This document shows positions 1,159-26,837 of a DNA stretch of 28,337 nucleotides, in pieces; position 1 is the stretch's first letter, and each line of letters begins with the position of its first letter. The stretch is from positions 1-28,337 of the forward strand of contig CAYLJO010000061.1 of NCBI GenBank assembly GCA_964383905.1, in the 5' to 3' direction. Under the pieces are notes generated by a model. That model was not told the origin of the DNA. It did no database searches and saw nothing but the letters and a program-made list of their open reading frames with translations. The position numbers were made by a program, and so were the translations under genes. This stretch comes from an uncultured Blastocatellaceae bacterium. Its GTDB lineage: Bacteria > Acidobacteriota > Blastocatellia > Pyrinomonadales > Pyrinomonadaceae.

Positions 1159-1415
1159 ACATTCCCTTCGCCGGTTGCGCAATGTCTCTTTGACACATCG
1201 CGCACGCTTGATGCCACAGATCGCATGCTCGACTCGGACGCGCACGCGCGACAGCGCTCGATTGTGCCATAAACATTTAGCTGATTTTTATTCAATTCAA
1301 CTTCAAATAGATTTAGAGATAGTCCTTGTAAGCTGTGGCTGTTTTGGGATGATAGGACTAGGCCACGACTGGTTGAGAGGTTAACTGTCCATTTAGAATC
1401 TGCCATAAGTACGAG

Positions 1416-1694
1416 TTGGCCTTATCCATTCTGTTGCGGGAACAGTTAGATGCTCAGAATTTGCGCTCCAAGGTGGCCGCGCTTAAAGCTAAGCTTAAAT
1501 ATGGAAGCGAAGAGAAGGGCGGATTTACGGCGCACTCATTCCGTCAGGCGCGCATCTCTCGCCTTGCAGAACGCGGTCTGCCGCGCGAAACTATTATGAA
1601 GCTCTCCGGCCACACGAGCATTCAAGGTATAGAACCTTATCTGCACGCCACGCCAGAGTCAATTAAATTCGCGGCACAACTCATAACGGGGTGA
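1416..1694 (+). pseudogene. tyrosine recombinase (phage-integrase family) C-terminal catalytic fragment; N-terminal two thirds missing
   Basis: 92-aa ORF containing AHSFRQARISRLAERGLP...LSGHTSIQGIEPYLH, i.e. the His-x-x-Arg box and catalytic Tyr region of tyrosine recombinases. No upstream in-frame ORF encodes the N-terminal core-binding or the first catalytic Arg segment. Sits at the edge of a low-GC insert. Confidence 0.6.
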
Positions 1695-1809
1695 TGGCTT
1701 TTGACGGTGAGCGGGGTAAATGGGGTAGCTCAGGTAACAGAGGTGGCGGATTCCGCCGCCTCTAAACCCTTGAATAAACGACAACTTCCGCCAGCAGAGA
1801 GGGTTAGCC

Positions 1810-2661
1810 GTGATTGAGCCTTTATCCTACAATAATTATCTTCGTGTCGGAGACCTGATTAAGCTGCAGGAGTGTCTCTCCGATCCGGCCCATCACGACG
1901 AGCTGTTATTCATTACCATCCATCAAACTTACGAGCTCTGGTTCAAGCAGATTCTTCATGAGATCGATGCGGCCGTCGAGCGGATGAATGAAGACCGCGC
2001 CGCGGCCGCCGCGCACATACTCCACCGCGTTGTCGAGATCGAAAAGATTCTGGTCAACCAGATTCACATCCTGGAGATGATGACGCCGATCAGCTTTCTC
2101 GGTTTCCGCGACGGACTGAACCCCGCGAGCGGTTTTCAGTCCATGCAGTTTCGCGAGATCGAATTCTCTTCCGGCCTGAAAGATGAACAGATCCTGCGCG
2201 AGTTTCGTGATGACGAGTTTGCCTACCCGCGGCTCACCGCGCGTTACAATGCGCCGACGCTGAGAGACGCTTTCTTCGCACTGCTCAGGCGCCGCGGGTT
2301 TGATGCGCCCGCCGACGATGCGACACCCGGTAAGGAAGAACAGAAACAGTACGCTAAGCGGACGCGCGCGGTGGTTGAAGTTCTCACGCACTTCGAGGAG
2401 CGTGGCGAAGAGTTTCAGCTGGCAGAACGCCTCATCGAACACGACGAGTATTTTTCTCTCTGGCGCTTGCACCACATCACAATGGTCGAACGGATGGTCG
2501 GCGCAAAACGCGGCACGGGCGGGTCGGAAGGCATCGGATACTTGCGCACCACGCTTCATAAACGGTTCTTCCCTGAATTATGGGAGGCGCGCACCTACCT
2601 CGACACAAAGCATGGCGCGGGGGGCTGCCCCTTCACAGGCCATCAAGAAGGCGATGCGTGA
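1810..2661 (+). CDS. kynA: tryptophan 2,3-dioxygenase (TDO), GTG start
   Basis: Strong family signature: YNNYLRVGDLIKLQ...HHDELLFITIHQTYELWFKQILHEI, MTPISFLGFRDGLNPASGFQSMQFREIEF, and C-terminal WRLHHITMVERMVGAKRGTGGSEGIGYLR...FFPELW. Length (~283 aa) fits bacterial TDO. GAGAGGG purine run upstream of the GTG. Confidence 0.88.
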   Translation: MIEPLSYNNYLRVGDLIKLQECLSDPAHHDELLFITIHQTYELWFKQILHEIDAAVERMNEDRAAAAAHILHRVVEIEKILVNQIHILEMMTPISFLGFRDGLNPASGFQSMQFREIEFSSGLKDEQILREFRDDEFAYPRLTARYNAPTLRDAFFALLRRRGFDAPADDATPGKEEQKQYAKRTRAVVEVLTHFEERGEEFQLAERLIEHDEYFSLWRLHHITMVERMVGAKRGTGGSEGIGYLRTTLHKRFFPELWEARTYLDTKHGAGGCPFTGHQEGDA

Positions 2662-4736: not shown

Positions 4737-5039
4737 CGCGGCCGCCGGTCTCTATCCTCATCACCATGCCAGACGACGGGTGAGCAGGCGACCCGCTGGA
4801 CGATCACCTTTACCGCCCAGCAATTAAATGTCCTGAGCGCATACTTCGCGGCCGGACATGATATTGCGTTCGGCATCGATCCGGACTGCCACTTCTGGAA
4901 TAACGGCATCACGTTCAGCATGACGACGGCGAATAGCCCGGCGCCGGTGCCGGAGCCGACCACGATGGCGCTCCTCGGAACCGGGCTCGCCGGTCTCTAC
5001 TATCGCCGCCGCCGGTCAAAGGCACGGAGTGAGGCATAG
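4737..5039 (+). pseudogene. orphan PEP-CTERM sorting-signal tail (exosortase substrate C-terminus) lacking start and signal peptide; probable gene remnant
   Basis: Reading frame ends ...FSMTTANSPAPVPEPTTMALLGTGLAGLYYRRRRSKA* = VPEP motif + TM helix + Arg cluster (PEP-CTERM). The first canonical start codon in frame (ATG at ~4920) lies only 39 codons before the stop; no ATG/GTG/TTG exists earlier. The upstream part of the frame overlaps the thioesterase gene in another frame. Confidence 0.4.
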
Positions 5040-5061
5040 AAACTTGTCAGATAGTGTCTGT

Positions 5062-5109
5062 AAAAAGATCGGCGCGGACGGACTCTCACCCGTCCGCGCC
5101 GATCTTTTT
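5062..5109. terminator. bidirectional rho-independent terminator between convergent genes
   Basis: AAAAA-GATCGGCGCGGACGG-actctcac-CCGTCCGCGCCGATC-TTTTT: perfect 15-bp GC-rich stem, 8-nt loop, A-run on one side and T-run on the other. Lies between the + strand cluster ending at 5039 and the - strand regulator ending at 5138. Confidence 0.85.
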
Positions 5110-5137
5110 CCGGCACTGCTAGGGCCTCTTACCGGAC

Positions 5138-6556
5138 CTATTTAATACGACGATCCAGATTGTAATCGCGCAGCCGGCGGTAGAGAGTGGACGGGGATAT
5201 GCCAAGGATTTCCGCGGTCTTGCCGCGGTGCCAACCCGTCTGCTCAAGCGCGGCGAGGATTTGCTGGCGCTCGACTTCGCGTAATGATGCGGGCGATGCG
5301 GGGGCCGGGGGAATCTGCGTTGCGGTGTCGGCTGCGGTTTTGGCCGCGCCACTCTGAGAGGCGATAAACGCCGGGCCGGAACCGGCCGGCTGCCGCGTGA
5401 CTTCAGGCGGTAAGTCGTCGGGCGTGATTCGGCCCTGGTTGGCGAGGATAATGGCCCGCTCAAGACAGTTTCGCAACTGGCGCACGTTTCCGGGCCAACC
5501 GTAAGCGCGCAGCACATCAAGCGCCTCCGGCGTGAGCTCGGGCGGATTCGCGCCGCCGAGCTGCTTTAAGAGGTGGCGTGCCAGCGGCTCAATGTCTTCA
5601 GGTCGATCGCGCAGGGGGGCCAGATCAATCTGGAACCCGTTAATGCGATAAAGGAGGTCCGAGCGGAACGTGCCCTCAGTCACCACCGCTTCAAGGTTCC
5701 GATTGGTCGCGGCGACAATGCGCACATTGACCTCGACTTTGCGCACACCGCCAACGCGGAAAAAGGTCCGCGTCTCAATGGCGCGCAGGAGCTTGGCCTG
5801 AAGTTGCGGCGGCAGTTCCGTCACTTCGTCAAGAAAGAGTGTGCCGCCATCGGCCAGCTCGATCAGGCCCAGCTTGCGCCCTTTGGCGCCCGAGAATGCG
5901 CCGGCCTCGTAACCGAAGAGTTCGCTCTCGAGGAGCGTCTCCTGAAACGCGGCGCAGTTGAGGTCAATGAACGAAGCGTCCGCCCGGTTAGATAAACGGT
6001 GGATGGCGTGCGCGATCAGCTCCTTGCCCGTCCCCGACTCGCCCGTAATCAGCACTGAAGCCTCCGAGGGCGCGACGCGTTCGACGAGCCTGACCGCCTC
6101 GCGCATCGCTTCAGAGGTCGCGATGATTTCCGGCATCGCCGATTGGCGGGCCAGTTGCTCGCGCAGGCGCTGATTATCCACACGAAGGCGGCGCTTCTCG
6201 GCCGCCTGCTTGACCAGCGCGTCGAGCTCCGTGATGTGATACGGCTTCGAGAGGTAATCATAAGCGCCGAGCTTCATCGCCTCGATCGCCGTCTCGACCG
6301 TGGCGTGGCCCGTCAGCATAATTACTTCGGGCGGGTTCGGTCGCTCGTGGACGCGGCGCAGCAATTCCATCCCGTCCATCCGCGGCATGTTAATGTCGCA
6401 GAGCAACACGTCAACGTTGCCCTCTTCCAGTCGCCGCAGCGCCGCTTCGCCGTCGGGCGCAACCTGAACTCTGTAACCCAGGCGCTGGAGCTCTCGCTGG
6501 ATCACCAGGCGCAGGTTGGCTTCATCTTCGGCGACAAGGAGTCGCGCGCTTTGCAT
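5138..6556 (-). CDS. sigma-54-dependent response regulator (NtrC family: REC + AAA+ sigma-54 activator + C-terminal Fis-type HTH)
   Basis: REC domain (LLVAEDEANLRLV...LLCDINMPRMDGMELL), Walker A ESGTGKELIAHAIH, GAFSGA (GAFTGA-like sigma-54 contact motif), ELFGYE, arginine-finger region, C-terminal HTH AEILGISPSTLYRRL. ATG at 6556 (MQSARLL) preferred over the alternative start at 6565 in the ORF track. Confidence 0.9.
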   Translation of the reverse strand: MQSARLLVAEDEANLRLVIQRELQRLGYRVQVAPDGEAALRRLEEGNVDVLLCDINMPRMDGMELLRRVHERPNPPEVIMLTGHATVETAIEAMKLGAYDYLSKPYHITELDALVKQAAEKRRLRVDNQRLREQLARQSAMPEIIATSEAMREAVRLVERVAPSEASVLITGESGTGKELIAHAIHRLSNRADASFIDLNCAAFQETLLESELFGYEAGAFSGAKGRKLGLIELADGGTLFLDEVTELPPQLQAKLLRAIETRTFFRVGGVRKVEVNVRIVAATNRNLEAVVTEGTFRSDLLYRINGFQIDLAPLRDRPEDIEPLARHLLKQLGGANPPELTPEALDVLRAYGWPGNVRQLRNCLERAIILANQGRITPDDLPPEVTRQPAGSGPAFIASQSGAAKTAADTATQIPPAPASPASLREVERQQILAALEQTGWHRGKTAEILGISPSTLYRRLRDYNLDRRIK

Positions 6557-6561
6557 CTCAC

Positions 6562-8613
6562 TCAAGCTGTTTGGTCTCCGTTATGGGCAGTCATGGCCGG
6601 CAACGAAATCGTAAAAGTCGTCCCGACCCCGACCGCTGATTGCACGTCAAGACGCCCGCCGTGCTCTGTTACAATACCATAACAGACGGCGAGGCCAAGC
6701 CCCGTGCCTCTTCCGATCTCTTTTGTGGTGAAAAACGGGTCGAAGATCTTTGTTAAGTTCTCATCCGGAATGCCTATTCCGGTATCACTCACTTCGATGA
6801 GCGCACGCCCGTCCTCATTACGCACACTAAGCGTCAGGCGGCCCCCGCCCGGCATGGCGTCAATCGCATTCGTAGCCAGCGCGATGACGGCCTGCTGCAA
6901 TTGCCCCTCATCACCGGAAACGTGAATCGCTTCGCCCGCTTCAATACGAATCTCTATCTTTTCACCCCGCCGTTGATGGGCCAGGAGCCGCGCCGCCGAG
7001 TGGATCACACCCGATAAATTAACGGGTACGTACTGGCCGGCGCGCGCGCGGCTAAAATCAAGCAGCCCGTTGGTGATTGCCTTGCAGCGGAAAGCTTCAC
7101 TACGAATCAACGCCAGGTACTCACGCAAATCCTCGACTTCAGCCGAACTGTCAAACGCGCCCCCGCGCACGCGCGATTCGAGCGCTTCGGCGCAGGCGGA
7201 AATCGTCGCCAGCGGATTATTGATCTCGTGCACGACGCCCGCGGCAAGGCGTCCGATGGCCGCGAGTTTTTCGGCACGCGCGACCGCGCGGTTCGCTTCC
7301 ACGCGCGCGGTGACGTCTTCCCCAACCGTGATGACATGAGAGACTTGGTCGCCGCCTTCGGCGCGCATCGGGATTTTGCTGACGAGCCAATGGCGGGTTT
7401 CACCATTCAGCGTCGTGGTCTCCTGCTTGATGTGCTCGATGTTACCCGTCTCGAAGGCGCGCCCGAATTCGCTCTCGAGGATACTGCGCTTCTGCTTTTT
7501 TAACACATCAAAGATGTTTTTCCCCAGCACCATATCACGCGGAATACCCTGCCCACCCAGCTCGCGGTTCCGGTTCCACGCGACGACACGATAGCTGCGG
7601 TCCACCGCGTAAATTGAGAGCGGCAGGCTATCGAGAATGGCTTCGGTGAAGCGCCTTTGCGCCTCGGCTTCGGCGGTGCGCCGCTCAACCTCTTTCGCCA
7701 GTGAGGCGGACGATTCGCGCGCCGCCTCATAAAGAGAGGCAATGTGTGCGGCGAGTGCCGCCTGTTGCGCCGCCGCGTCAATTAAACGGCTCTCCGTCTC
7801 GCCGCAATCTTCGCGGCGGTCGAACCCGACGATGAGCGCCCCCTGGGTACGCCCCTCGAAGCGCAACGGCGCAACGTATTCAAGCCGGTGCGCCTCGTCG
7901 CGCAGGAAGAACTGGTCTTGATCCTCGACGCGGGCCGCCGTCGCGCGGGCCGTAGACGCCAGCCAGGCATTAAGCCGGTCGGCGTAAAGCAATGAAACGC
8001 CTTCCGCGCTCCCTTCACGATCAAAGACACAGCTCGCCGCGCCGCGCTCATTAACATTCAGCATGGCCGCGCAAAGGGTCGCGCCCGTCCCTTCGTAAGT
8101 TGCGCCGGCCACCCGGCGCACCACCTGTTCGGGCTCGCGAGCCCGCAGCAGACCGCGGCCTAAATCGGCTAAAAACAGGAGTTCGCGATTGCTCCCCAGC
8201 AACGCCCATTCGCGCTTGGCCGATTCAAGGTGCGCGCCGACGCGTGAAAGGATTTCGAGGGGGCTGGAAGGTTTAACGATAAAATCGTCGGCCCCGGCGG
8301 CAAATGCTTCGACCTTCCGCTTCTCGTCATCGCTCGCCGAAAAGATAACGACGGGCAGTTGCCTTGTCGCGGATTGCGCGCGTAGAAGGCGACACAACGC
8401 GAGTCCGCCGACGCCCGGTATCTCAACATCGAGCATGACGAGGTCGCAAGGCTCTTTGTGCAGCGAGCGTAGGGCCGAGGGCGCATCGGCCACAGCTATT
8501 GTCCGGTGGCCGGCCTCTTCAAAAATGCGCTGCAAGTTTTTGCGCACGCCTGCATCGTCGTCAACAATAAGGAGCGTCGCGCCGGTAGCAATGGTGCTGG
8601 AAGGAGCCGACAT
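6562..8613 (-). CDS. hybrid sensor histidine kinase: N-terminal receiver (REC) domain, GAF-like region, PAS domain, HisKA and HATPase_c
   Basis: N-terminal [17 protein letters not shown]...[14 protein letters not shown]...FIVKP. PAS region [23 protein letters not shown]-box [12 protein letters not shown]1/G2 boxes DTGIGIP and [20 protein letters not shown]. Its stop is 5 nt from the downstream regulator start (overlaps the alternative regulator start), indicating co-transcription. Confidence 0.88.
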
Positions 8614-8770
8614 GCTTTCGATCCCGAAACATTGCGCGCCGGGCTAAATCTAGGGAAGAAGGCCCTTTACGCGCAACCGAGTAGGTGTGGGCGGGCTGTT
8701 CTGGCGCGCGACACTGGAGGGCGCGCCACACAACCCTCTTGAAATTGAAAGCGATGCCGCGAGGTTTGTC

Positions 8771-8890
8771 AAGGCAAACTAAAGAAGGCAAAAGGTAGGA
8801 GGTAAAAGGCAAAAGTGAGGGTCAAAGACAAAATTTAAAACCTGTTTTTCGCCTCACCTTGTCCTTCTTAATTTTGCCTTCTTTAGTTGA
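8771..8890. repeat. AT-rich intergenic element with inverted AAGGCAAAAGG / CTTTTGCCTT motifs (copy A), related to copy at 19531-19634
   Basis: GAAGGCAAAAGG (8784-8795) and AAAAGGCAAAAG (8803-8815) on the left, AAATTTAAAA core, TTTTCGCCTCACCTTG, then TTTTGCCTTCTTTAGT (8873-8888), which is the reverse complement of ACTAAAGAAGGCAAAA at 8779-8794. The right arm overlaps the stop codon of the upstream - strand gene. Confidence 0.4.
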
Positions 8891-11462
8891 CTGCTGTCGA
8901 GGTAAGCTTGCCTGTGGGAATATCACTCACCGGTTCTACTTTTGCCGCCCCGGTGGGCGGGTGCTGCTGCTTATGGGCCGACTTGGCGCGGTACATGGCC
9001 TCGTCGGCGGCGATCAAAAGCTGATCGAGGGTCTCACCATTAATGCCATAGGTTGCGGTTCCGACGCTGATGCCGACGCTTGCGTAATGGTCGGCGCGCA
9101 CCCGGAGCGAGAATTTCGAGACCGTTTTCTCAATACGCTCGCGCAATTCTTCAACCTGATCAGGCAGCAGGTCCTGAACGATGGCGACGAACTCGTCGCC
9201 GGCGTAGCGCGCCAGAAAATCGTACTCGCGCAATTGGCCTTGAAGAAGGCGCGCCACCTCGCGCAACATCTTATCGCCGACCTGGTGCCCGAACGTATCG
9301 TTGACCGGCTTGAAGTTATCGAGATCAAGCATGATGACTTGAAACGGGCGGCCCGAACGGCGGGCGCGCGCCGCTTCCTGGTCGAAACGCAGGTACATGT
9401 AGCGCGCGTTGGGAAGACCGGTGAGCGGGTCGGTCAGCGCGTTGGACTCGGCTTCCGCATGCTGCATCGCATTGGCGAGCGCGTCCGAAGCGAGTCGCGC
9501 GATCGTTTCGAGCAGGCGCATGTCATCATCCGTGTATTCATTTAAGACCATTGAATACACCGAGAGTGCGCCGAGCAGGCGCTCGTCCTTAACCAGCGGC
9601 AGCGCGGCCATGGCCCGGTATTCGCTGTCGGGGGCCAACTGAACACCCGCGAAGTCCAGGCTCGGATCAAGGCGGTTAATGGGCTGGCGGTTGGCGAGCG
9701 CGAATCCGGTCACGCCCTCGCCCGGCGCGACGCATTTCGAGCGCAGCGCCTCCGCGTTCTTTCCCGCCACATGTCCGGCCGTCGCATAGGCCTTCAACTC
9801 GTCAAAAAGATAGACGACACACGTATCGAAAGGCACGATGTGGCCGACTTTATTAACTAAGATTGAAAGCGTGTCTTCGATGTCGAGCGACGAGCCAAAA
9901 GTGCGCGCGATCTCGTAGAGAGAGTAGACCTCGCGGTGCGCGTTCTTGATCTGATCATAGGCGGGCGATGAAGTGCGTTCACGGCCCTGCGCAACGTCCA
10001 GGAGGGACAGCGTACGCGTCTCGCGCCCTTCATCCGTGGCATTTTGCTGTTCGAGACCGAGCGCAGCGATCTCGGCCTCGAAGCGCGACAAATTCTCGAC
10101 GAAGAGGTCAACAACCTTCGGGTCAAAGTGTGACCCGGCTCCGCGCTGCAGGAGCGCGATGGCTTCGGCACGCGTCATACCCCGGCGGTAAGGGCGGTCT
10201 TCACGCACCGAGTCGAAGCAATCGACCACCGAAATAATGCGCGCTGTAATCGGGATGTGCTCGCCCTTCAGCCCGTCGGGATAACCCTGCCCGTCCCACT
10301 GCTCGTGATGATGGCGCACAACAGGGACGACCGGGTACGGGAAATCGACGCGCTCTAAAATTTCCGCGCCGACCGTCGTGTGCACCTTCATCTTCTCAAA
10401 CTCGGCGGCGGAAAGTTGACCGGGCTTGTTTAGGATGTGATCGGGCACAGCCAGTTTCCCAATATCGTGCAGCAGGGCCCCGGCTTTGAGCGCCTCAATC
10501 TCATTTTCCGAGAGGCCGTAGAGCTTTCCTATCCCGGTGGCGTAAATTTGCACCCGCCGGACGTGGCAGTGTGTTGTTTGATCCTTCGCGTCAATCGCCG
10601 TGGCGAGCGCTTCGACCGTCGCCAGATGCAGGCGGCTTATCTCCGAAGCCTTCCGCGTCATTTCGTTAACACGCTCGAAGTAAACCCAGTAGGTGGCGTA
10701 TGTCGCCGCGAGGACCGGCACGCTCAGCAGGACATAGAGAAACCCGAACTTCGAGAGCGCCACATAGATTATTGCCGTCGCAATCGCCGCCGCGACGAAG
10801 GTCCAGGAAGTCCACAAGTAACCTTCGCGCCAGAATCTCCAGAAGGACTGGCGGCTTCTCAAAGCATACATTGTGGCGAGGGAAAGGCCGTTGAGAAGGA
10901 ATTGCAGGATCGTCATCAACGCCAGCGGCACGAGCAGGTGATCGAGCGGCAGCGGCGTCGTCCCGAGCGGGGCAGGCTTGGCCGAAGGGTAGGCGGCGAG
11001 CATGGCGTAAAAGGCGCTCCCCGAAATCAGGGTCGTGGCGACCATCATGGCGGACGCCGCGAACAAAGTGGGCATGCGCTTTGTCGTGCGCTTTGCGCTG
11101 ATGAGAGAATCGGCAGCGCTGAGCAAAACCGCCGCCGGCACGCCGAGCAGCAGCACGCCTAAGAAGATAAACGTATCACCGGCCGTCACGCTGGCGGTCG
11201 TGGTCGGGATGCGGATCGGGTAGGAGCTGGCGGCGACCGTGAGCAGTAGCAGGGCGAAGAGCGCTGCCCACTGCGCCGACATGAAAAACAGGCACTGGCA
11301 GATGGCCCATAGGCAGATCAGAGCGGCTGCGGCAACCACCAGGTACCAATAGATTTTGGCGCCCCGGTTGTAATCTGACATGACAGATTTCACCCGCGCT
11401 CTCCAATCATAACGAGCCCGAGCGGCTGTCCGTGTCGCCTTGCCTTCGTCAAGCTTCATCAT
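8883..11462 (-). CDS. multidomain c-di-GMP turnover protein: N-terminal polytopic membrane domain, HD-GYP phosphodiesterase domain, GAF domain, C-terminal GGDEF domain (AGDEF variant)
   Basis: Multiple hydrophobic helices in the first ~260 aa. HD-GYP signature LLHDIGK...HHEQWDGQGYPDGL. GGDEF domain with RSGRPFQVIMLDLDNFKPVNDTFGH and ARYAGDEFVAIV (first Gly replaced by Ala). Alternative start at 11384 (MSDYNRG). Confidence 0.85.
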   Translation of the reverse strand: MMKLDEGKATRTAARARYDWRARVKSVMSDYNRGAKIYWYLVVAAAALICLWAICQCLFFMSAQWAALFALLLLTVAASSYPIRIPTTTASVTAGDTFIFLGVLLLGVPAAVLLSAADSLISAKRTTKRMPTLFAASAMMVATTLISGSAFYAMLAAYPSAKPAPLGTTPLPLDHLLVPLALMTILQFLLNGLSLATMYALRSRQSFWRFWREGYLWTSWTFVAAAIATAIIYVALSKFGFLYVLLSVPVLAATYATYWVYFERVNEMTRKASEISRLHLATVEALATAIDAKDQTTHCHVRRVQIYATGIGKLYGLSENEIEALKAGALLHDIGKLAVPDHILNKPGQLSAAEFEKMKVHTTVGAEILERVDFPYPVVPVVRHHHEQWDGQGYPDGLKGEHIPITARIISVVDCFDSVREDRPYRRGMTRAEAIALLQRGAGSHFDPKVVDLFVENLSRFEAEIAALGLEQQNATDEGRETRTLSLLDVAQGRERTSSPAYDQIKNAHREVYSLYEIARTFGSSLDIEDTLSILVNKVGHIVPFDTCVVYLFDELKAYATAGHVAGKNAEALRSKCVAPGEGVTGFALANRQPINRLDPSLDFAGVQLAPDSEYRAMAALPLVKDERLLGALSVYSMVLNEYTDDDMRLLETIARLASDALANAMQHAEAESNALTDPLTGLPNARYMYLRFDQEAARARRSGRPFQVIMLDLDNFKPVNDTFGHQVGDKMLREVARLLQGQLREYDFLARYAGDEFVAIVQDLLPDQVEELRERIEKTVSKFSLRVRADHYASVGISVGTATYGINGETLDQLLIAADEAMYRAKSAHKQQHPPTGAAKVEPVSDIPTGKLTSTAVN

Positions 11463-15136: not shown

Positions 15137-15658
15137 TCACTTCTCCTCTGGTCGTAATCCGAGCGTTCGGAGATAAGCCACGTAGCGGCCGCGGTCGTTG
15201 TCGCTCATTTCGGTAATACGCGCGCCGATGAGATAGCCTTCCTCTTCTTCCTCAAGCCGCTCGTAGCGCACCGGAACCACCTGCACCTCCGTAGGGCCGG
15301 CAGGCAGGGCAAGCGTGAGTCGCAATACGCGGTCTTCACCGGTCAGGTAATGCCCGCCGATCCGAATACTAGGAACGATGAGGGCGATGCCCGATGCGCT
15401 GATGTCGCACGTATGGCCCTGGAGCGAAGGCACGCGCCGCGTGGCGCTATTGCCCGTCTTTGCGGCCAGCAGGGAAACATTGACCAGTAAACGTGTCTTG
15501 TACCGCCTGGCGCGGCGGCGGTCACCCACAAATCTCCGTAAGCGCGCCGCGATAGAGCGCATCAATTCCGGCATTTCGCTATCTACCTCGCAGGCCGCTT
15601 CCACGCGCAAAGCGCCGTCGGGATCAGGGAGGGGTGCGAAAACTTCAAGGAATCGCAA
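15137..15658 (-). CDS. PilZ-domain c-di-GMP receptor protein (alternative start at 15577, MPELMRS)
   Basis: Canonical PilZ motifs RRRARRYKTRL (RxxxR) followed ~25 aa later by CDISASGIALIV (D-x-S-x-x-G). Small single-domain protein. Confidence 0.7.
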   Translation of the reverse strand: MRFLEVFAPLPDPDGALRVEAACEVDSEMPELMRSIAARLRRFVGDRRRARRYKTRLLVNVSLLAAKTGNSATRRVPSLQGHTCDISASGIALIVPSIRIGGHYLTGEDRVLRLTLALPAGPTEVQVVPVRYERLEEEEEGYLIGARITEMSDNDRGRYVAYLRTLGLRPEEK

Positions 15659-16865: not shown

Positions 16866-19436
<2,571 letters not shown>

Positions 19437-19719: not shown

Positions 19720-22179
19720 ATGCGTGTACGCACACTCGCGCTCACACTCCTCAATATCTTGGTTCTTACTTCTTCCCTCGCTCCGGCGCAAACGGGTCTA
19801 CAGCCCGGTGCGGCAAGACAGGGCCCGGCGCGGGTGGCCGGCGGGCATGTGCCTGCGCCGGAAGAGGTGCTCGGCTTTCGCCCCGGCGATGACCGGAAAC
19901 TGGCAACCTGGGCCGGCGTCGTCGAGTATTTCCGCAGACTCGCCTCGGCGAGTAATCGTGTGAAGTTTGAGGAGCTGGGCCGGACGACAATGAACGCGCC
20001 CTACGTGATGGCGACGATCAGCGCGCCAGAGAACCTGGCGCGTCTGGACGAGTACAAAGAGATTCAGCGCCGGCTCGCCGACCCGCGGACGCTCGGGGCG
20101 GACTCCGACCGTCAGTCGGCGCAACTCATCGCCCGCGGCAAGACCATCGTGCTTATCACGTGCGGCATTCATTCGACGGAAGTCGGCTCATACCTGTCGA
20201 GCATGCTGATCGCGCACCGCCTGGCGTCGTCGGACGAACCGCTGGTGCGTGAGATTCTACAGAACTGTATTGTACTGCTCGTGCCCGCGCTCAATCCGGA
20301 TGGCGTTGACATCGTGAAGAACTGGTATGACAAGACGCTCGGCACACCTTATGAGGGGACCGATCCGCCCGTGCTCTATCATAAGTACGTCGGCCACGAC
20401 GACAACCGCGACTGGTACGCTTTCACCCAGGTCGAAACGCAGATCGCGGTCGGTAAGATCCACAACGTCTGGCACCCGCAGATCGTCCACGACATACACC
20501 AGCAGGGGGCTTACGGCTCGCGCCTATTTCTGCCGCCGTACATGCGGCCCGTCGAGCCGAATGTGCCGAAGCAGGTTGTCGAAGGCTATACGGAACTTGG
20601 CCGCGCGATGATGAGCGAGATGCGCGCCGCCGGGTTCAAAGGCATCACGACCGACTCCACCTACGACGCATGGACGCCTTCGCGCGCCTACTCACACTAT
20701 CACGGCGGCGTGCGCATCCTCTCCGAAACGGCATCCGCCCGCCTCGCCACACCCATCACCGTCCGTTTCTCAGACCTGCGTCCGGGCGAAGGGTACGACC
20801 CGCGCAAACCGGCGCCCAACTTTCCAGACGTGTGGGAGGGCGGAGAATGGCACCTGCGCGACATCACGAGCTATATGACGACTGCCGCCTTCGCCCTCCT
20901 ACACCATGCCGCGCAGAATCGTGAACACTGGCTCCAGAGGTTTTATGAGATCGGAAAGGAAGCAGTGCGCCCCCGAAAGCCGGGCGAGTTGTTTGCGTTT
21001 GTGATCCCCCCTTCTAAGCATAGTAACGATATCCTTCGTATCTTTAGGTTAGGTGGAATGGAGGTGGATTTAACCTCTGCATTTAGTGTGAACGGGGTGA
21101 AATATCCTCGCTTAACGGCAGTAGTGCGAATGGCACAGCCATACAACAGCTTCGCCAGGGTGCTCATGGAAGCCCAGCGTTACCCCGACCTGCGAGACTC
21201 AGCCGGCAACCCTATCGCCCCTTACGATGTTACAGCGCACACCTTACCACTGTTGATGGGAGTAGGGTTCCGGTCTATGCATGCGGCCTTTACATACAAG
21301 AATTTTGGCGGCGGCGTCGGGGGCTGTGAGGGCTGGGGGGGCCGTCCCGAACGCATCGCTATTTATAGATCGCACGTTCCTTCAATGGACGAAGGTTGGA
21401 CGCGGTGGGTGATCGATCAGCAGTGGACGGCGAAGACACTGGATAAAGGCAGACCCGTTTATACTTCGTTATTTGATGCCGAAGCGCGCGCAGGGGATTT
21501 ACGTGAAAAGTATGACGCGATCATTATCCCGGACCAACCGGCACGCATAATTCTGAACGGTTACAAGCCCGGCACAATGCCCCCGGAACTAACCGGCGGA
21601 CTCGGCGCGGAGGGTGTGCGGAGTTTGCGGGAGTTCGTTGAGCAGGGCGGCACGCTGATTTGCTTGAACAGGGCGGCGGATCTCCCCATCGAACAATTCA
21701 AGCTGCCGGTGCGCGACATCACCAAAGGACTCAAACAGACGGAGTTCTACGCGCCCGGCTCAATCCTGCGTACCGAGCTTGACACGTCGCACCCGATCGC
21801 CGGCGGCATGCCGGAGCAGTCCATCGCGTGGGTAGAGAATTCGCCCGTCTTTGAGATTAGTGATGCAAAAGAAGCGGCGCGTGTTCGCATCATCGCGCGT
21901 TATCCTACGCGGGCCGATCCGCTGCTCTCCGGCTGGCTGCTCGGGGGCCAGCGCATTCGCGGCAAAGCGGCGCTCGTGGAAGTTACGATGGGGCGCGGGC
22001 ACGTCTACCTTTTCGGCTTCCGCCCGCAATATCGCGGGCAATCACTGGCGACCTACCCTCTTTTCTTTAACGCCATCCTTCAGGCAAATAATTTGAGGGC
22101 CTCGCAACTGCCCGGGAAAATAGGCGGCGAAAAAGTGATTGTGCGTGATGCCAATGCCTCTCACCTAGTGGCAAGATAA
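19720..22179 (+). CDS. secreted M14-family zinc carboxypeptidase-like protein with large C-terminal extension
   Basis: Signal peptide MRVRTLALTLLNILVLTSSLAPAQ. M14 zinc-binding region GKTIVLITCGIHSTEVGS (H-x-x-E) and LVPALNPDGVD. 819 aa. Confidence 0.8.
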   Translation: MRVRTLALTLLNILVLTSSLAPAQTGLQPGAARQGPARVAGGHVPAPEEVLGFRPGDDRKLATWAGVVEYFRRLASASNRVKFEELGRTTMNAPYVMATISAPENLARLDEYKEIQRRLADPRTLGADSDRQSAQLIARGKTIVLITCGIHSTEVGSYLSSMLIAHRLASSDEPLVREILQNCIVLLVPALNPDGVDIVKNWYDKTLGTPYEGTDPPVLYHKYVGHDDNRDWYAFTQVETQIAVGKIHNVWHPQIVHDIHQQGAYGSRLFLPPYMRPVEPNVPKQVVEGYTELGRAMMSEMRAAGFKGITTDSTYDAWTPSRAYSHYHGGVRILSETASARLATPITVRFSDLRPGEGYDPRKPAPNFPDVWEGGEWHLRDITSYMTTAAFALLHHAAQNREHWLQRFYEIGKEAVRPRKPGELFAFVIPPSKHSNDILRIFRLGGMEVDLTSAFSVNGVKYPRLTAVVRMAQPYNSFARVLMEAQRYPDLRDSAGNPIAPYDVTAHTLPLLMGVGFRSMHAAFTYKNFGGGVGGCEGWGGRPERIAIYRSHVPSMDEGWTRWVIDQQWTAKTLDKGRPVYTSLFDAEARAGDLREKYDAIIIPDQPARIILNGYKPGTMPPELTGGLGAEGVRSLREFVEQGGTLICLNRAADLPIEQFKLPVRDITKGLKQTEFYAPGSILRTELDTSHPIAGGMPEQSIAWVENSPVFEISDAKEAARVRIIARYPTRADPLLSGWLLGGQRIRGKAALVEVTMGRGHVYLFGFRPQYRGQSLATYPLFFNAILQANNLRASQLPGKIGGEKVIVRDANASHLVAR

Positions 22180-22387: not shown

Positions 22388-23080
22388 ATGGTTACGCTTC
22401 TCATCACCTCTTTTCTTCTATTAACCGCCATCGCCTTCGCCATCTATTTTTGGCAGCGCACGCCGTCCGGCGCGGGCGCGGAACGGGTTCTACCGCCACC
22501 GCGCCCCGCCCCGTTGTTCGGCAATAACGGTTTGAGCGAACTCCCCGCGGCCGAGCACGAAACAGGCGCTAAAGCTGCGGACTACCGAGCAGCTCTTCTG
22601 ACGCGCGCCGCTTCCGGAGACAAGGAGACCCTGCGAGACGCGCACGCGAGCGGCGACACGGCTCTGTACGACGCGGTTCTGGACGCGCTGGTTGAGCGCG
22701 CATTGGGCTCTGACAAGGCCGTGTTCGCGCTCGTGTCCTATATCACGCGGAGCGACAAGTTACGGGTTAACAGGAAGTTAGCCGAAGCTTTTAGAGAGAC
22801 GTGGGAAGCAGCCCCCGATAAAAGCTCGACCGCCAAGATGCTGCACATCGCGGCGCTCATGGACGATGCCGCGGTCTATCAGAACGCGGTTGAAACGGCC
22901 CTCCAATTCTGGCGCGGCGGGCGCTTACAACGCGTCCCGGCGGATGAGCTGCGTGCGCTGGTGGAGGGCGAGTTCTGGCTGCTGTCGCCGGGAGTGAGAA
23001 AATCGGGCGCGGGCTTTCTGTTGAAACGCAGGATCGCAAGCTGTCGCCGTGAATTGATGGCGGCGACGCGAGCCATATAA
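22388..23080 (+). CDS. hypothetical protein with N-terminal TM anchor, first gene of the SPFH neighbourhood
   Basis: N-terminal hydrophobic helix LLITSFLLLTAIAFAIYFW followed by a ~200-aa Ala/Arg-rich helical soluble region with no recognised motif. Ends 22 nt before the flotillin-like ORF (52 nt before its preferred start). Confidence 0.5.
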   Translation: MVTLLITSFLLLTAIAFAIYFWQRTPSGAGAERVLPPPRPAPLFGNNGLSELPAAEHETGAKAADYRAALLTRAASGDKETLRDAHASGDTALYDAVLDALVERALGSDKAVFALVSYITRSDKLRVNRKLAEAFRETWEAAPDKSSTAKMLHIAALMDDAAVYQNAVETALQFWRGGRLQRVPADELRALVEGEFWLLSPGVRKSGAGFLLKRRIASCRRELMAATRAI

Positions 23081-23132
23081 CGTATTTTACTCACCCTTTG
23101 AAATGTTCTCTGGAAAGTCGAGGACCCTACCT

Positions 23133-25325
23133 ATGAACAACACTGACATGACGTCTTTCGTCCCCTACCTGTTCGGCGCAGTCATACTGCTCGTCGTGCT
23201 GCTCGTAATTTTGAGCCGCATACTCGTGAACGTCGGCGCGCGTGAGATTGCGATTAAAGAGCGGCGTTATTTCGGCGCGAAGATGCCGCCGGGAAGAGTC
23301 GTCGCCACCGAAGGTGAAGTCGGGATTCAGGCCGACGTGCTCAAACCCGGGCTGCATCTGATCAAGTACCCGTTTGAGCGGGTGGTGCGCAAAGTCCCGC
23401 TGATCGAGATCGGCGCGGACGAACTCGGCATTGTCGAGGCCATCGACGGCGAGCCGATGCCGCCCGGACGCGTCTTTGCCCCCGACCGCGCGCAGAACGC
23501 CCATAACAATTTTCAGGACCCGATTGCCTTCATCAAGCAGGGCGGCGTGAAAGGCATTCAGCTCCGCACACTCCCGCCCGGCCTGTGGCCGATTCACCCG
23601 TACCTCTTCCGCGTCTCGGTGAGCAAGACGACTGTCATCCCGCAGGGCAAGGTCGGCGTGATCACAGCGGCCGACGGCGCGCCGCTCGACCCGGGCCGCC
23701 TGCTCGGTAAAGCCATCGAAGGCCACCGCAACTTTCAGGACGCCGAGCTGTTCATTGCGTCCGGCGGCCAGAAGGGGCCGCAGGTAGATATCCTAACGCC
23801 CGGCACGTACCGCATCCTGACTCAGTCCATGCCCATCGAAGACGGCACGAGCACAAAGCCGGGGCTATTCTACATCAAGCTCTACGACGCGACTGTGATC
23901 AACGAGAATGAGATCGGGCTGGTCGAAGCTTTAGACGGCGCGCCGCTCAACCCGCGCGATTACGTCGCCGCGCCGGTCGAGGGCCACGATAATTTTCAGG
24001 ACGGCCATGAGTTCATCGGGCGCGGCGGCCAGCGCGGCCCGCAGAAGGACATCCTGCTGCCCGGCACTTACTACATCAACCCGCAACTCTTCAAAGTGAT
24101 CCCGGAGACCGCCAAGGAAGTGAAACCGGGCGAAGTCGCCGTGATCGTTTCTAACGTCGGCAAAGACCCGTCCGACGAGGTGCGCCGCGTGATGGCGGCT
24201 AAAGTGCGCGAGCGGATGGAGCGTGAAGAGCAGGAGCAGGCGGAGCAATCGGCGGCGCGGCTGGATAAGATAGATAACAGCAGAACCGCCGAAGAGATTA
24301 AAGCCGAGTTGATGACGGGGGACCCGGCGGACAGAAGGCTGGACGAAGGCGCGCACGAAGCCTACGTTGTGCCCGAAGGCTACCGCGGCATCCAGGAATC
24401 GGTCGTCGGGCCGGGCCGCTACTACGTCAACACCCTCGCCATCACGCCGATCGTCATCCCGACCACGAACCAGACGGTGGAATGGACGGCGGGCGAGGTC
24501 GTCAACACCTTCAACCCGTTCGAGGTGATCTCAAAAGACGGCTTCACGATGCAGTTGGAAGTCCGCGTCGTCTTTCGCATCAAGCCGGAAGACGCGCCCT
24601 TCATGGTCGCTAAGATCGGCGGCATCGACCGCTTGATCCAGAACGTGATGCACCCGCTGATCGACTCGATCTTCCGCAACCAGGCGTCGGAGTCCTCCGC
24701 GATGGCCTACCTGCAGAACCGCCACGAGGAGCAGGAGCGGGCCGAAGCGCGTGTCCGCGCACACCTCTTGAAGTATCACGTGGACGTGGTCAACGTCCTG
24801 ATCTGCCACATACACCTGCCGGAAGAGCTGATGAAGACGCAGACGGAAAAGATTCTCGCCGAGCAGCGGCAGAACATGTTTGACGCGCAGCGCGAGGCCG
24901 AAGAGAAGCGCATCCAACTAGAGAAGACCAAAGCGCACGCCGACAACCAGAAAGATCTGATGGCGGCTACGGTCGGCGTGGAGATTGCGGGTAAACGCGC
25001 CGAGCAGCGCAAAGCCGAGGCGGAAGGCGAAGCGCACTACATCCTCGCCACGGGCAAGGCCGAAGCGGAAAAAGTTCGCTTGATGGGCGAAGCCCAGGGC
25101 GTGGCCTATCACGAACAGGTCAACGCGCTCGGCGCGCAGGGCGTCGCGCTCGTCGAAACCCTCAAGGTGATCGGCGAAAAAGGCGTCCGCATCACGCCCG
25201 ACGTGATGGCTTCGGGCGGCACAGGCGACGGCGCGGGCGGCATCGGCACGCTGCTCCTGCTCAACCTGTTCCGCGACCGCCTGAATCTTCCGGCGGACAA
25301 TGGATCAAAAGCGACGGTGAAGTAG
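23133..25325 (+). CDS. flotillin-like SPFH (band 7) protein with N-terminal TM anchor, four tandem SPFH-N-terminal-like beta repeats, a central SPFH domain and a long Ala/Glu-rich coiled-coil tail
   Basis: GAGGA 8 nt upstream of ATG 23133 (ORF track starts 23103). TM helix FVPYLFGAVILLVVLLVILS. Repeats each of the form G-x-V-x-A-x-DG-x-P-L/M-x-PGR...EGH-x-NFQD...GGQ-x-GPQ-x-DIL-x-PGTY (aa ~47-95, 98-172, 176-243, 262-333). SPFH core EVISKDGFTMQLEVRVVFRIKPEDAPFMVAKIGG...LIQNVMHPLIDSIFRNQASE. Flotillin-type tail KAEAEGEAHYILATGKAEAEKVRLMGEAQG. Confidence 0.8.
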   Translation: MNNTDMTSFVPYLFGAVILLVVLLVILSRILVNVGAREIAIKERRYFGAKMPPGRVVATEGEVGIQADVLKPGLHLIKYPFERVVRKVPLIEIGADELGIVEAIDGEPMPPGRVFAPDRAQNAHNNFQDPIAFIKQGGVKGIQLRTLPPGLWPIHPYLFRVSVSKTTVIPQGKVGVITAADGAPLDPGRLLGKAIEGHRNFQDAELFIASGGQKGPQVDILTPGTYRILTQSMPIEDGTSTKPGLFYIKLYDATVINENEIGLVEALDGAPLNPRDYVAAPVEGHDNFQDGHEFIGRGGQRGPQKDILLPGTYYINPQLFKVIPETAKEVKPGEVAVIVSNVGKDPSDEVRRVMAAKVRERMEREEQEQAEQSAARLDKIDNSRTAEEIKAELMTGDPADRRLDEGAHEAYVVPEGYRGIQESVVGPGRYYVNTLAITPIVIPTTNQTVEWTAGEVVNTFNPFEVISKDGFTMQLEVRVVFRIKPEDAPFMVAKIGGIDRLIQNVMHPLIDSIFRNQASESSAMAYLQNRHEEQERAEARVRAHLLKYHVDVVNVLICHIHLPEELMKTQTEKILAEQRQNMFDAQREAEEKRIQLEKTKAHADNQKDLMAATVGVEIAGKRAEQRKAEAEGEAHYILATGKAEAEKVRLMGEAQGVAYHEQVNALGAQGVALVETLKVIGEKGVRITPDVMASGGTGDGAGGIGTLLLLNLFRDRLNLPADNGSKATVK

Positions 25326-25600: not shown

Positions 25601-25957
25601 ATGAAAATCAGGCATGTCGTGGTAGCCGCGCTTTACCTGGTCGTCGGCATATCGCTAGTTCTAATTGTCTGGTCAAAGGCGGCGGCGTTGCTGAATGCCC
25701 GTTCGGACGCCAGCGTGATGATGGGATGCGCTTTGATCGTCGCGACGCTGGCCTTCCTTGGCCTTTCTGCTTACCTGCTCCGGCGAAAGTTCTTCGATGA
25801 AGGGGCAGCGAGTCTGAGCGATAAAGACCGGCGTGCGCTCGACCGGCCCGTTTCACAGAGGCGGCTGTTCCCAAAGTCTGTCAACCCCGTTGAGAATTTC
25901 GATGAAGAAACCATCAATCACAAAGAGAGGTCGTCCCATGATAGACGTCAAAATTAA
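25601..25957 (+). CDS. small two-TM membrane protein with charged C-terminal tail; 3' end overlaps the start of the downstream SPFH gene by 21 nt
   Basis: Two hydrophobic helices (VVVAALYLVVGISLVLIVW; VMMGCALIVATLAFLGLSAYLL) then a hydrophilic Arg/Asp/Glu-rich tail. AT-rich promoter-like region upstream (tataaaaatcgtatatatagc). Not an obvious NfeD OB-fold. Confidence 0.5.
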   Translation: MKIRHVVVAALYLVVGISLVLIVWSKAAALLNARSDASVMMGCALIVATLAFLGLSAYLLRRKFFDEGAASLSDKDRRALDRPVSQRRLFPKSVNPVENFDEETINHKERSSHDRRQN

Positions 25958-26837
25958 TAGATCACTGGTCATCTCGGCCGCTGTGTTTATCCTGTTGCTG
26001 GTAGCCAGCGGCCTCCTGGTCGCCGGATGTACGGTCATCCCGCCCGGCTACGTCGGCATTAAAGTCAACCAGTCCGGCGGAAACCGCGGCGTCGAACACT
26101 ATCCTATTCTGACGGGCAGACAGTTTTACAACCCCGTTAACGAGAAGATCTATGAGTATCCGGTCTTCCTCCAAACCATCGTCTGGACCAAAGATCCGAA
26201 AGAGGGCGCCCCGCACGACCAGTCAATCACCTTCAACTCCGTCGAGGGCGCGGTCGTCAACGTTGACGTGAGTCTCTCTTACGCTTTCGTCACGGAGAAA
26301 GTGCCTTCGATTTTCGTCGAGTTCCGCCGCACCCCGCAGGAGATCACAGACACCTACATGCGGACCAAGGTGCGCGATTCCTTCTCACGCATCGCTTCGA
26401 CGATGCCGATCGTCGACATCTACGGGGCGAAGAAGCAGGAGCTGCTCGCCCGGGTGAAACAGGATTTGGAGCGCGAGTTGGAGCCGAAGGGCTTCAAGAT
26501 TGATACCGTCTCGATGGTCGGCAACCCGCGCCTTGATCCCAACGTCATCAACTCGATCAATCAAGCCATCCAGGCGCAGCAGGATGCTCAGCGTGCCCAG
26601 AACAAGGTCGCGCAGGTCGAGGCCGAGGCGCGGCAGAAGATCGCCGAGGCCGAAGGTGAGGCCAAGAGGATCACGACGATCGCTGAAGCTCAAGCGACGG
26701 CTAACGAGCGACTCACCAAGTCGCTCACCCCGCAGTTGGTGCAGTATGAGGCCCTGCAGAAGTGGGACGGCCACATGCCGCAGGTGACGGGCCCAGGCGG
26801 TATGCCCTTCATCCAGCTTCAAGGGGCCGGGAAATGA
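25937..26837 (+). CDS. SPFH/band 7 family membrane protein (stomatin/prohibitin/HflC-like)
   Basis: N-terminal TM LVISAAVFILLLVASGLLVAG then VIPPGYVGIKVNQSGGNRG...PGLH-type SPFH beta start (cf. the repeats in the flotillin gene). VDVSLSYAF, IYGAKKQELLARVKQDLERELEPKGFKIDTVSMVGNP. C-terminal coiled-coil AQRAQNKVAQVEAEARQKIAEAEGEAKRI. Confidence 0.8.

Follow-up and report, generated by a model that had tools for sequence, protein, structure and literature searches.

A membrane-anchored SPFH protein of Pyrinomonadaceae with tandem repeats predicted to form a vault-like chain of domains

The locus and the encoded protein

The window, that is, the whole stretch of 28,337 nucleotides analysed here, originates from an uncultured Blastocatellaceae bacterium and contains on its forward strand an open reading frame of 740 amino acids (23103..25325). 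The true start is probably the ATG at position 23133, corresponding to M11 and giving a protein of 730 amino acids; close homologues from Pyrinomonadaceae with 88-100% identity are 730 amino acids long and start at the equivalent of M11. The original prediction, made from the sequence alone, described a flotillin-like protein with four tandem copies of an SPFH N-terminal beta module at positions 23240-24170, which correspond to residues 47-356 of the 740-residue reading frame. The features of the locus are as follows (residues of the 740-residue frame unless 730-residue numbering is indicated).

22388..23080, + strand: upstream gene for a 230-amino-acid protein with an N-terminal transmembrane (TM) helix, a conserved neighbour
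23148..23216, + strand: N-terminal TM helix, residues 16-38 (hydropathy and flanking charges; helix in the AlphaFold2 (AF2) model)
23232..23402, + strand: repeat 1 (R1), residues 44-100, short and membrane-proximal (repeat HMM, i-E 3e-17)
23403..23636, + strand: repeat 2 (R2), residues 101-178 (repeat HMM, i-E 7e-37)
23637..23897, + strand: repeat 3 (R3), residues 179-265 (Smith-Waterman z 33 against R4)
23898..24116, + strand: repeat 4 (R4), residues 266-338 (repeat HMM, i-E 5e-39)
24117..24170, + strand: first strand of unit 5, residues 339-356, VKPGEVAVIVSNVGKDPS, the start of SPFH1 (strand E334-340, 730-residue numbering)
24171..24347, + strand: charged helical insert dividing unit 5, residues 357-415 (59 residues; helices, pLDDT 50-80)
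24348..24497, + strand: second half of unit 5, residues 416-465, the remaining SPFH1 strands (repeat HMM; z 8.7 against R4)
24366..24902, + strand: Pfam Band_7 (SPFH) domain, PF01145, residues 422-600 (85.6 bits against a cutoff of 23.6)
24822..25178, + strand: single Ala/Glu-rich helix of ~120 residues, residues 574-692 (H564-682 in the AF2 model, 730-residue numbering)
25179..25325, + strand: Gly-rich tail with a short hydrophobic helix, IGTLLLLNLFRDRL (pLDDT 31-49; helix H705-717)

The upstream gene is located directly 5′ in 80 of 83 related Pyrinomonadaceae/Blastocatellia loci, with 53-58% identity of the encoded proteins, and a counterpart is also present at locus L001; its product is a probable operon partner of the SPFH protein. 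No counterpart was present near the distant homologues P0143 and P0125, and the 230-residue protein gave no match in Pfam (NfeD included), NCBIfam, PADLOC or the PDB. The downstream SPFH gene, to which the repeats had originally been compared, occurs in only 1 of the 83 related loci; it was therefore rejected as a functional partner and is an incidental neighbour. The 80 loci kept in the related-locus search represent close Pyrinomonadaceae/Blastocatellia orthologues, and they are informative for synteny, not for the breadth of the family. Over at least 80 genomes of these groups the orthologues are 83-90% identical, indicating a strong constraint on the protein. PADLOC assigned neither the protein nor its neighbours to a defence system, and a scan for promoters and terminators remained at background level.

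Tandem repeats and their relation to the SPFH domain

Segment-wise Smith-Waterman scores, compared with those of 300 shuffles, confirmed four tandem repeats at residues 44-338. The internal similarity on which the original prediction depended is significant, with z values of 20-33 for the pairs among R2 to R4 (R2/R3 19.9, R2/R4 22.4, R3/R4 32.8) and of 7.7, 6.2, and 4.2 for R1 against R2, R3, and R4, respectively; for all pairs of R1 to R4 the observed score was reached by 0 of 300 shuffles. Identity to R4 amounts to 47% for R3, 44% for R2, and 34% for R1. The consensus proposed originally, G-x-V-x-A-x-DG-x-PL-x-PGR...EGH-x-NFQD...GGQ-x-GPQ-x-DIL-x-PGTY, describes R2 to R4 well but not R1, which lacks the ~19-residue EGHxNFQD segment and retains the canonical SPFH1 hairpin motif 'PGLH'. 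Self-BLASTP of the whole protein returned the diagonal alone without internal matches, Tandem Repeats Finder detected no tandem repeat at the DNA level, and a Pfam scan of the isolated repeats gave no match. The duplications behind the repeats are old.

Downstream of R4 the repeat HMM matched residues 419-446 (i-E 7e-4) in unit 5, whose second half has the same strand pattern as the repeats in the AF2 model. In homologues P0125 and P0143 the unit-5 insert is short, and in such homologues a single repeat-HMM match covers both the first strand and the start of Band_7; in P0125 (residues 467-530) HMM positions 5-66 were matched, i.e., the whole of unit 5. Judged from these matches, the charged insert is lineage specific, the SPFH domain of the protein itself has as its N-terminal beta part a fifth, degenerate and split copy of the repeat, and the repeats and the SPFH1 unit of this protein are homologous. 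As unit 5 is a repeat copy within this beta part, and as several homologues show a repeat-HMM match where their SPFH domain begins, the idea of an amplified N-terminal SPFH sub-module holds. Within single proteins, the sequences of the SPFH/repeat family offer evidence that repeat unit and SPFH1 represent one and the same module. This agrees with the classification of archaeal 'MVP repeat + SPFH' proteins of 317-396 amino acids with ECOD H-group 3529.1, in which the beta sub-domain before the SPFH core is one MVP repeat (PMC13607799). These archaeal proteins have one unit, whereas members of the bacterial family have 2 to ~15 in tandem.

The core that follows belongs to the SPFH/Band 7 superfamily, as the Band_7 match exceeds the curated cutoff and the alpha/beta fold is followed by the long helix, in line with the original description of an SPFH core and helix behind the repeats. 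Band_7 is the only Pfam or NCBIfam model that covers any part of the protein, and the architecture is indeed non-standard. The label 'flotillin-like' proved to be loose: Flot and NCBIfam flotillin models did not match, a profile search against PDB sequences gave flotillin-2 an E of 0.8, and by sequence the core is nearest to prohibitin and QmcA, nearer than to the MVP shoulder. An NCBIfam scan, HflK, HflC and flotillin models included, gave no match, and a PDB search with the single sequence returned only noise. An identity as HflK or HflC was rejected in view of the missing equivalog match and the predicted cytoplasmic, not periplasmic, body.

The flotillins FloT/YuaG and YqiK resemble the protein in having an N-terminal anchor, an SPFH domain predicted to be cytoplasmic, and a long helix rich in Ala and Glu. 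Flotillins do not possess a repeat array, however, and the NfeD-type partner gene of FloT/YuaG and YqiK (YuaF and YqiJ) has no counterpart beside the gene studied here; no NfeD-type gene was found in the neighbourhoods read (L001, P0143, P0125, and Microcystis). HflK/C, QmcA, prohibitin, erlin, and stomatin possess only one SPFH1 unit, adjacent to the membrane. The protein described here has four extra homologous units between anchor and SPFH1, and other members of the repeat + SPFH family have up to ~14, whereas canonical SPFH cage proteins have none.

Vault-like predicted structure and breadth of the family

The full-length AF2 model had a mean pLDDT of 79, with 85-94 over the repeats. In the case of R1 the beta strands were modelled at 85-90, and in R3 the value dropped to 62-72 in an additional loop of ~18 residues (241-258). 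A model of the repeats alone reached a pLDDT of 88.3 and a pTM of 0.79. In both the repeats appear as serial beta domains, one of the outcomes that the original prediction had envisaged for an AlphaFold model. All 15 Foldseek matches with E <= 1e-3 were MVP structures, and the repeat-only model could be superposed rigidly on ~4 consecutive MVP domains (210 residues, 3.3 Å). The prediction of a straight chain of MVP-like domains is therefore one of high confidence, and in these models the array has the fold and the linear arrangement of MVP repeat domains, a likeness overlooked by the original prediction. In the predicted structure the tandem MVP-type beta domains directly precede the SPFH shoulder, and the ~120-residue helix corresponds to the coiled coil or 'cap-helix'. 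The order of anchor, vault-like repeats, SPFH 'shoulder' and long helix thus corresponds to the plan of an MVP subunit plus a membrane anchor.

At the sequence level, Pfam Vault (PF01505), Vault_2-4 and MVP_shoulder (PF11978) matched neither the whole protein at E <= 1 nor the repeats at E <= 10, whereas these domains were present in all real MVPs scanned. A comparison with hhalign gave a nonsignificant probability of 35% with one MVP sequence and of 77.5% (E 1.9e-5, 56 columns) with a shallow alignment of 11 tetrapod MVPs, placing one repeat unit in register with MVP R4. In a generic MVP-repeat profile (MAFFT) the MVP repeats aligned poorly, which made the repeat-versus-repeat comparison uninformative. 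The data do not prove that the protein belongs to the vault protein family, and as prohibitin and QmcA are the closest to its SPFH core by sequence, with the MVP shoulder more distant, the arrays may have arisen independently of that of MVP. MVP, the subunit of the eukaryotic vault (PDB 4V60, 3GF5, 6BP7), has nine repeats compared to four (plus one) here. It is a soluble subunit whose free N terminus pairs half-cages; the protein described here carries a TM anchor at its N terminus, and its repeats, unlike those of MVP, contain an insert made up of the EGHxNFQD segment (absent from R1) and a short helix. Few prokaryotic MVP homologues have been reported (Daly 2013, PMC3762200; bioRxiv 10.1101/872010), and they are known only from a few bacteria and from ten Asgard archaeal proteins with five repeats (PMC12962969). 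Herpetosiphon A9AUD4 and Saprospira H6L4P8 are among the reported homologues.

A search with the repeat profile retrieved 1311 protein clusters (50% identity) at E <= 1e-3, with 1 to 15 matched stretches per protein, and complete members had 2 to 13 full copies. Homologues with variable repeat number, the existence of which had been anticipated, were thus found, ranging from 2 to ~15 copies. The family occurs in Acidobacteriota, Geomonas and many cyanobacteria and includes the cultivable Geomonas subterranea, Microcystis aeruginosa, Nostoc punctiforme, and Microseira wollei. Six-copy members include Geomonas WP_224962355 and a Microcystis protein of 849 amino acids. Within members from Geomonas and cyanobacteria, internal copies share 68-79% identity, more than they share with any copy elsewhere, which indicates lineage-specific duplication; copies are added by duplication of internal units. 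A link to Synechocystis Sll1021 could not be established, as no Synechocystis protein was among the best 120 relatives of a cyanobacterial member. The members all bear no more specific annotation than SPFH, YqiK, HflC or flotillin protein, YqiK being the name that JGI uses for the repeat + SPFH family.

Membrane topology and proposed assembly

In the family members with a single N-terminal helix, lysine and arginine residues follow the helix in 46 of 46 cases (mean 2.76 after the helix versus 0.22 before it), and the tail before the helix has a median length of 3 residues and almost no positive charge. By the positive-inside rule an N-out/C-in helix with the body of the protein in the cytoplasm is predicted, and not the outward, periplasmic orientation assumed originally. 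In homologue P0145 two TM helices precede the repeats, with a peptidoglycan-binding domain (sub-threshold match) between them, an order that would put its repeats in the cytoplasm as well. The members from Microcystis and Dolichospermum have neither a TM helix nor a signal peptide, and in-frame stop codons are found just upstream of their starts. Downstream of the anchor-less Microcystis gene lies a gene for a polytopic membrane protein (DUF4407), and in Moorea DUF4407 is fused to the family, suggesting membrane attachment in trans.

We favour, as the somewhat more probable reading, an inner-membrane SPFH scaffold with the subunit plan of MVP and an added membrane anchor, in which the repeat chain would serve as barrel wall. 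The TM helix is followed by four beta domains of ~55-85 residues with the predicted MVP fold, the SPFH1 unit, SPFH2, whose alpha/beta core is the 'shoulder', and the ~120-residue helix with its flexible tail. As every structurally characterised SPFH protein associates into rings or cages, HflK/C, QmcA, flotillin, prohibitin, erlin, stomatin, and MVP among them (PMC12624060, PMC13100048), the subunits would be expected to stand side by side and to close into a ring or dome at the cytoplasmic side of the membrane. With the repeat chain spanning the distance between membrane and SPFH shoulder, the repeat number would determine how tall and how large a membrane-bound compartment is enclosed. Both structures of the protein are AF2 monomer predictions, and the cage and the wall role are proposed by analogy.

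It is SPFH1 that contacts the membrane in canonical SPFH complexes (PMC12624060), and given the homology of the repeats to SPFH1 and the 'PGLH' motif in R1, the extra modules might instead lie flat on the membrane, giving an otherwise ordinary SPFH ring a larger footprint or more lipid contact. We consider this unlikely, as the straight rod of the repeat-only model, tied to the TM helix on one side and to SPFH2 on the other, could hardly be flat inside a closed ring, and members with 13 to 15 copies would need an implausibly wide footprint. The charge distribution around the helix, the anchor-less cyanobacterial members and the domain order of P0145 make it improbable that the repeats extend outward from the TM anchor as a periplasmic or cell-surface beta-rich array. 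Such an array would fit a single N-terminal hydrophobic helix and the weak summed matches of long members to the Pfam surface-adhesin model CshA_repeat, but no individual stretch exceeded the threshold of this model. HflK and HflC are periplasmic SPFH proteins and provide a precedent for this orientation. That the protein is a true MVP orthologue forming free, closed, two-halved vault particles is very improbable despite the shared domain order, the MVP repeats as best structural match, the hhalign result and the existence of anchor-less members, since the TM helix sits where MVP halves dimerise, vault Pfam models do not match, the core is closer to prohibitin/QmcA, and the anchor-less Microcystis gene has its DUF4407 neighbour, fused in Moorea.

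If the scaffold reading is extended, the family might form tall 'half-vault' cages on the cytoplasmic membrane, held there by their own TM helix or, in the case of the anchor-less cyanobacterial members, by the DUF4407 partner, with the height given by repeat number and with an origin of the MVP domain, supposedly unique to the vault, by tandem duplication of SPFH1 in a membrane-bound SPFH cage; this is a tentative proposal. The family would then stand between canonical SPFH cages and the eukaryotic vault as a prokaryotic intermediate, or would closely parallel such a form. It is an abundant and hitherto unrecognised family combining a TM anchor, a variable MVP-like chain and an SPFH core in one protein. 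Its natural series of repeat numbers allows the proposed role in the cage wall to be tested, and the origin of the vault wall and the control of SPFH compartment size become experimentally approachable in bacteria. Some members carry C-terminal fusions to VWA, CHAT or STAND-NTPase domains, which hint at roles in signalling or stress.

Repeat array and start of the SPFH domain

Band_7 (SPFH, aa 422-600) was the sole Pfam domain recognised in the window protein, and an NCBIfam scan gave no match. Its close relatives, all from Pyrinomonadaceae (Acidobacteriota), are 88-100% identical to it and comprise 730 aa, with a first residue corresponding to the second methionine of the window ORF (nt 23133). 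The N-terminal region was split into units suggested by motif, which were compared pairwise by Smith-Waterman alignment against 300 shuffles.

Features of the repeat-SPFH gene and its product
23103..25325, + strand: repeat-SPFH gene, 740-aa ORF (ORF list)
aa 44-100: R1, motif-based unit
aa 101-178: R2, motif-based unit
aa 179-265: R3, motif-based unit
aa 266-338: R4, motif-based unit
24171-24347 (aa 357-415): charged helical insert of 59 aa splitting the SPFH1 unit (lower-confidence model)

R2, R3 and R4 resembled one another at 20-33 SD over the shuffles; R1, a shorter copy from which the EGHxNFQD segment is missing, still scored 4-8 SD above them. Identity among the four copies is 30-46%. 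These scores show that the tandem repeats originally predicted, and their coordinates (aa 47-356), are right. Since Tandem Repeats Finder detected no DNA-level repeat in the gene, the duplications behind R1-R4 are old. An 18-aa loop within repeat 3 (window 23823-23876, aa 241-258) was modelled at lower confidence.

The start of Band_7 (aa 415-465) resembled the second half of a repeat (z 8.7 against R4, Smith-Waterman), and an HMM built from the alignment of the four copies (A1) matched aa 419-446 of the window protein (i-E 7e-4). In homologues with a short insert, this HMM covered the entire unit directly before the SPFH core. The match in family member P0125 spans residues 467-530 (HMM positions 5-66), and the unit before the core was matched at 1.8e-6 in P0176 and 1.2e-5 in P0192. 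In the AlphaFold2 model, a strand at aa 339-356 and strands at aa 416-465 reproduced the strand pattern of R2-R4, and the place of the repeats' short helix is occupied in this fifth unit by the 59-aa insert; in P0125 and P0143, both distant homologues, this insert is short. From the z score, the HMM matches and the strand pattern it follows that SPFH1, as the N-terminal beta sub-domain of the SPFH domain is named in the cryo-EM literature, itself belongs to the repeat series, in support of the original prediction that an N-terminal SPFH sub-module had been amplified.

Predicted fold and relation to the major vault protein

To part the repeats from the SPFH domain, aa 38-355 were modelled alone (pLDDT 88.3, pTM 0.79) and subjected to structure search. 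Against SPFH cage proteins, with ~90 residues aligned, this model scored 6.9 for prohibitin, 5.7 for erlin, 5.2 for QmcA, 5.1 for HflC, 4.7 for HflK and 4.1 for stomatin. Foldseek agreed independently: 15 of 15 matches with E <= 1e-3 were major vault protein (MVP) structures, and SPFH proteins came next, below the threshold. On these results the modelled array is predicted to share both fold and linear arrangement with the vault repeat domains. A single unit is also like SPFH1, which is consistent with a 2026 ECOD-based study in which the beta sub-domain that precedes the SPFH core in archaea is classified as a single 'MVP repeat' (PMC13607799).

By hhalign, the family profile matched a single human MVP sequence (1984 bits over residues 1-893 in a check against the PDB) with a probability of 35%, and an 11-sequence tetrapod MVP alignment with 77.5% (E 1.9e-5), the latter match placing one repeat unit (aa 165-227, 730-aa numbering) in register with MVP residues 148-210. 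This similarity is suggestive, short of proof of kinship. The window protein is not assigned to the MVP family here, because it was matched by none of the Pfam models Vault, Vault_2-4 and MVP_shoulder, which mark every true MVP, and because the sequence of its SPFH core was closer to those of prohibitin-2 and QmcA (E about 1e-6) than to that of MVP, to which the search with this core gave no match. The window protein works, or at least is built, like MVP.

The kind is already known, since bacterial proteins, among them a Herpetosiphon 'band 7 protein', were put forward as putative MVP homologues in 2013 and 2019 (PMC3762200; 10.1101/872010), five-repeat homologues from Asgard archaea were added in 2026 (PMC12962969), and ECOD implicitly equates SPFH1 with a single MVP repeat (PMC13607799). 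Still in April 2026, the literature on vaults called MVP domains unique to the vault (PMC13100048). In the literature we found no description of a large bacterial family which escapes the Vault models of Pfam and in which a TM anchor is combined with an MVP-like chain of variable length, nor of within-protein sequence evidence for such a chain growing from SPFH1. For specialists in SPFH proteins and vaults, the repeat-SPFH family, which so far rests wholly on prediction, is of real interest.

Repeat number, topology and proposed assembly

When 1.84 billion representatives of clusters at 50% identity were searched with a four-copy profile, 1311 proteins matched at E <= 1e-3 (655 of them at E <= 1e-10, 133 at E <= 1e-30), each with 1 to 15 matched stretches; no ordinary SPFH protein was retrieved among these representatives. 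An SPFH core was detectable in 87 of the 150 best matches. Complete proteins contain 2-13 full-length copies: the members from Geomonas subterranea and G. oryzae (829-837 aa) have six, and that from Symploca (1802 aa) has 14 matched stretches, 13 of them full-length. Many members occur in Nostoc, Microcystis, Dolichospermum, Cylindrospermum, Okeania, Moorea, Tolypothrix and Hassallia, and further ones in Microseira wollei and Planktothrix; the source names of named members are all generic (SPFH or Band 7 domain-containing, YqiK, HflC, flotillin family, VWA domain-containing, hypothetical). Each copy of the window protein is closer to its positional equivalent in orthologues than to its sibling copies. 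Internal copies of Geomonas-type and cyanobacterial members share 68-79% identity with one another, more than with any copy elsewhere, and the first and last copies are distinct from them, a sequence pattern indicating that duplication of internal units alters the repeat number.

Some members carry additional C-terminal domains (VWA, CHAT, DUF4407, STAND-type NTPase), and a zinc ribbon is present in some.

Extra domains in individual family members
P0121, P0122, P0128, P0145: C-terminal VWA
P0246: C-terminal CHAT
P0512: STAND/AAA domains
P0172: VWA and RTX, N-terminal of the repeats

That long members join VWA, CHAT-protease or STAND-NTPase domains to the repeat-SPFH-helix module is a hint of a role in signalling or stress. 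The CHAT part of P0246 gave a weak PADLOC match to BovA. Public annotation of the repeats of long members (e.g. P0121 186-246, 1009-1065) shows CshA_repeat (PF19076) and ATP-synt_ab_Xtn (PF16886) instead of a proper domain model; these summed, sub-threshold matches, which come from precomputed and fresh Pfam scans alike, are probably a spurious result of repetition.

In members with a single N-terminal hydrophobic helix, Lys and Arg followed the helix in 46 of 46 cases (mean 2.76 vs 0.22 before it), and the median tail ahead of the helix is 3 aa long. Under the positive-inside rule, repeats and SPFH domain alike are predicted to be cytoplasmic, which contradicts the outward-facing, periplasmic array proposed earlier. 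Proteins from Microcystis, Dolichospermum and Microseira start right with repeat 1 and have no hydrophobic segment. An in-frame stop lies 10 codons 5' of the ATG in two Microcystis genomes, and thus the anchor is truly absent from these forms.

Anchor-less member and next gene in two Microcystis aeruginosa loci (L084 and L085)
5001-7550: anchor-less member, 849 aa, six copies
7621-8829: DUF4407 gene, next after the anchor-less member

The DUF4407 protein beside anchor-less forms is polytopic, with 3-4 predicted TM helices and coiled-coil regions. Its position as next gene, together with the fusion of DUF4407 to a family member in Moorea (P0490), suggests that anchor-less members are held at the membrane in trans via this protein.

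The comparisons establish the domain plan, the homology between repeats and SPFH1 and the variable copy number, and the models predict a rod of MVP-like domains. By analogy with the assembly behaviour of all structurally known SPFH proteins and MVP (PMC12624060, PMC13100048), subunits would assemble side by side as a ring or dome at the cytoplasmic face of the membrane; the repeat rods would be its wall between membrane and SPFH shoulder, and copy number would set how high the enclosed space is. In the main rival explanation, the additional SPFH1-like units lie on the membrane and serve as further lipid-binding modules; the rigid, rod-like prediction and the members of 13-15 copies speak against this.

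Neighbourhood of the repeat-SPFH gene

Genes flanking the repeat-SPFH gene in the window
16866-19436, - strand: OPT oligopeptide transporter, syntenic in 31/83 related loci
19720-22179, + strand: 819-aa protein with M14 carboxypeptidase domain, syntenic in 55/83 related loci
22388..23080, + strand: 230-aa protein, single N-terminal TM helix, body apparently helical, directly upstream
25601-25957: 118-aa TM ORF, overlapping the second SPFH gene
25833..26837, + strand: second SPFH protein of ordinary size (Band_7 E 1e-23; weak HflK similarity)

Of 83 related Pyrinomonadaceae/Blastocatellia loci, 80 contain the upstream gene for the 230-aa protein, which was not found beside distant homologues; its product had no Pfam, NCBIfam, PADLOC or PDB match. 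The second SPFH gene, located ~500 bp downstream and used as comparator in the original prediction, is probably an unrelated neighbour, because it was present in only one of the 83 loci. The anti-phage defence models of PADLOC matched neither the repeat-SPFH protein nor its neighbours. A cyclic-di-GMP-related signalling cluster with no evident link to the repeat-SPFH gene (window 5138-11462 and 15137-15658, both - strand) encodes a sigma-54 activator response regulator, a hybrid PAS histidine kinase, an HD-GYP/GAF/GGDEF protein (859 aa) and a PilZ-domain protein. A 313-aa ORF at window 217-1158 had no Pfam match, and the G+C content is ~0.50 in window 1-2000 vs 0.57-0.63 elsewhere.
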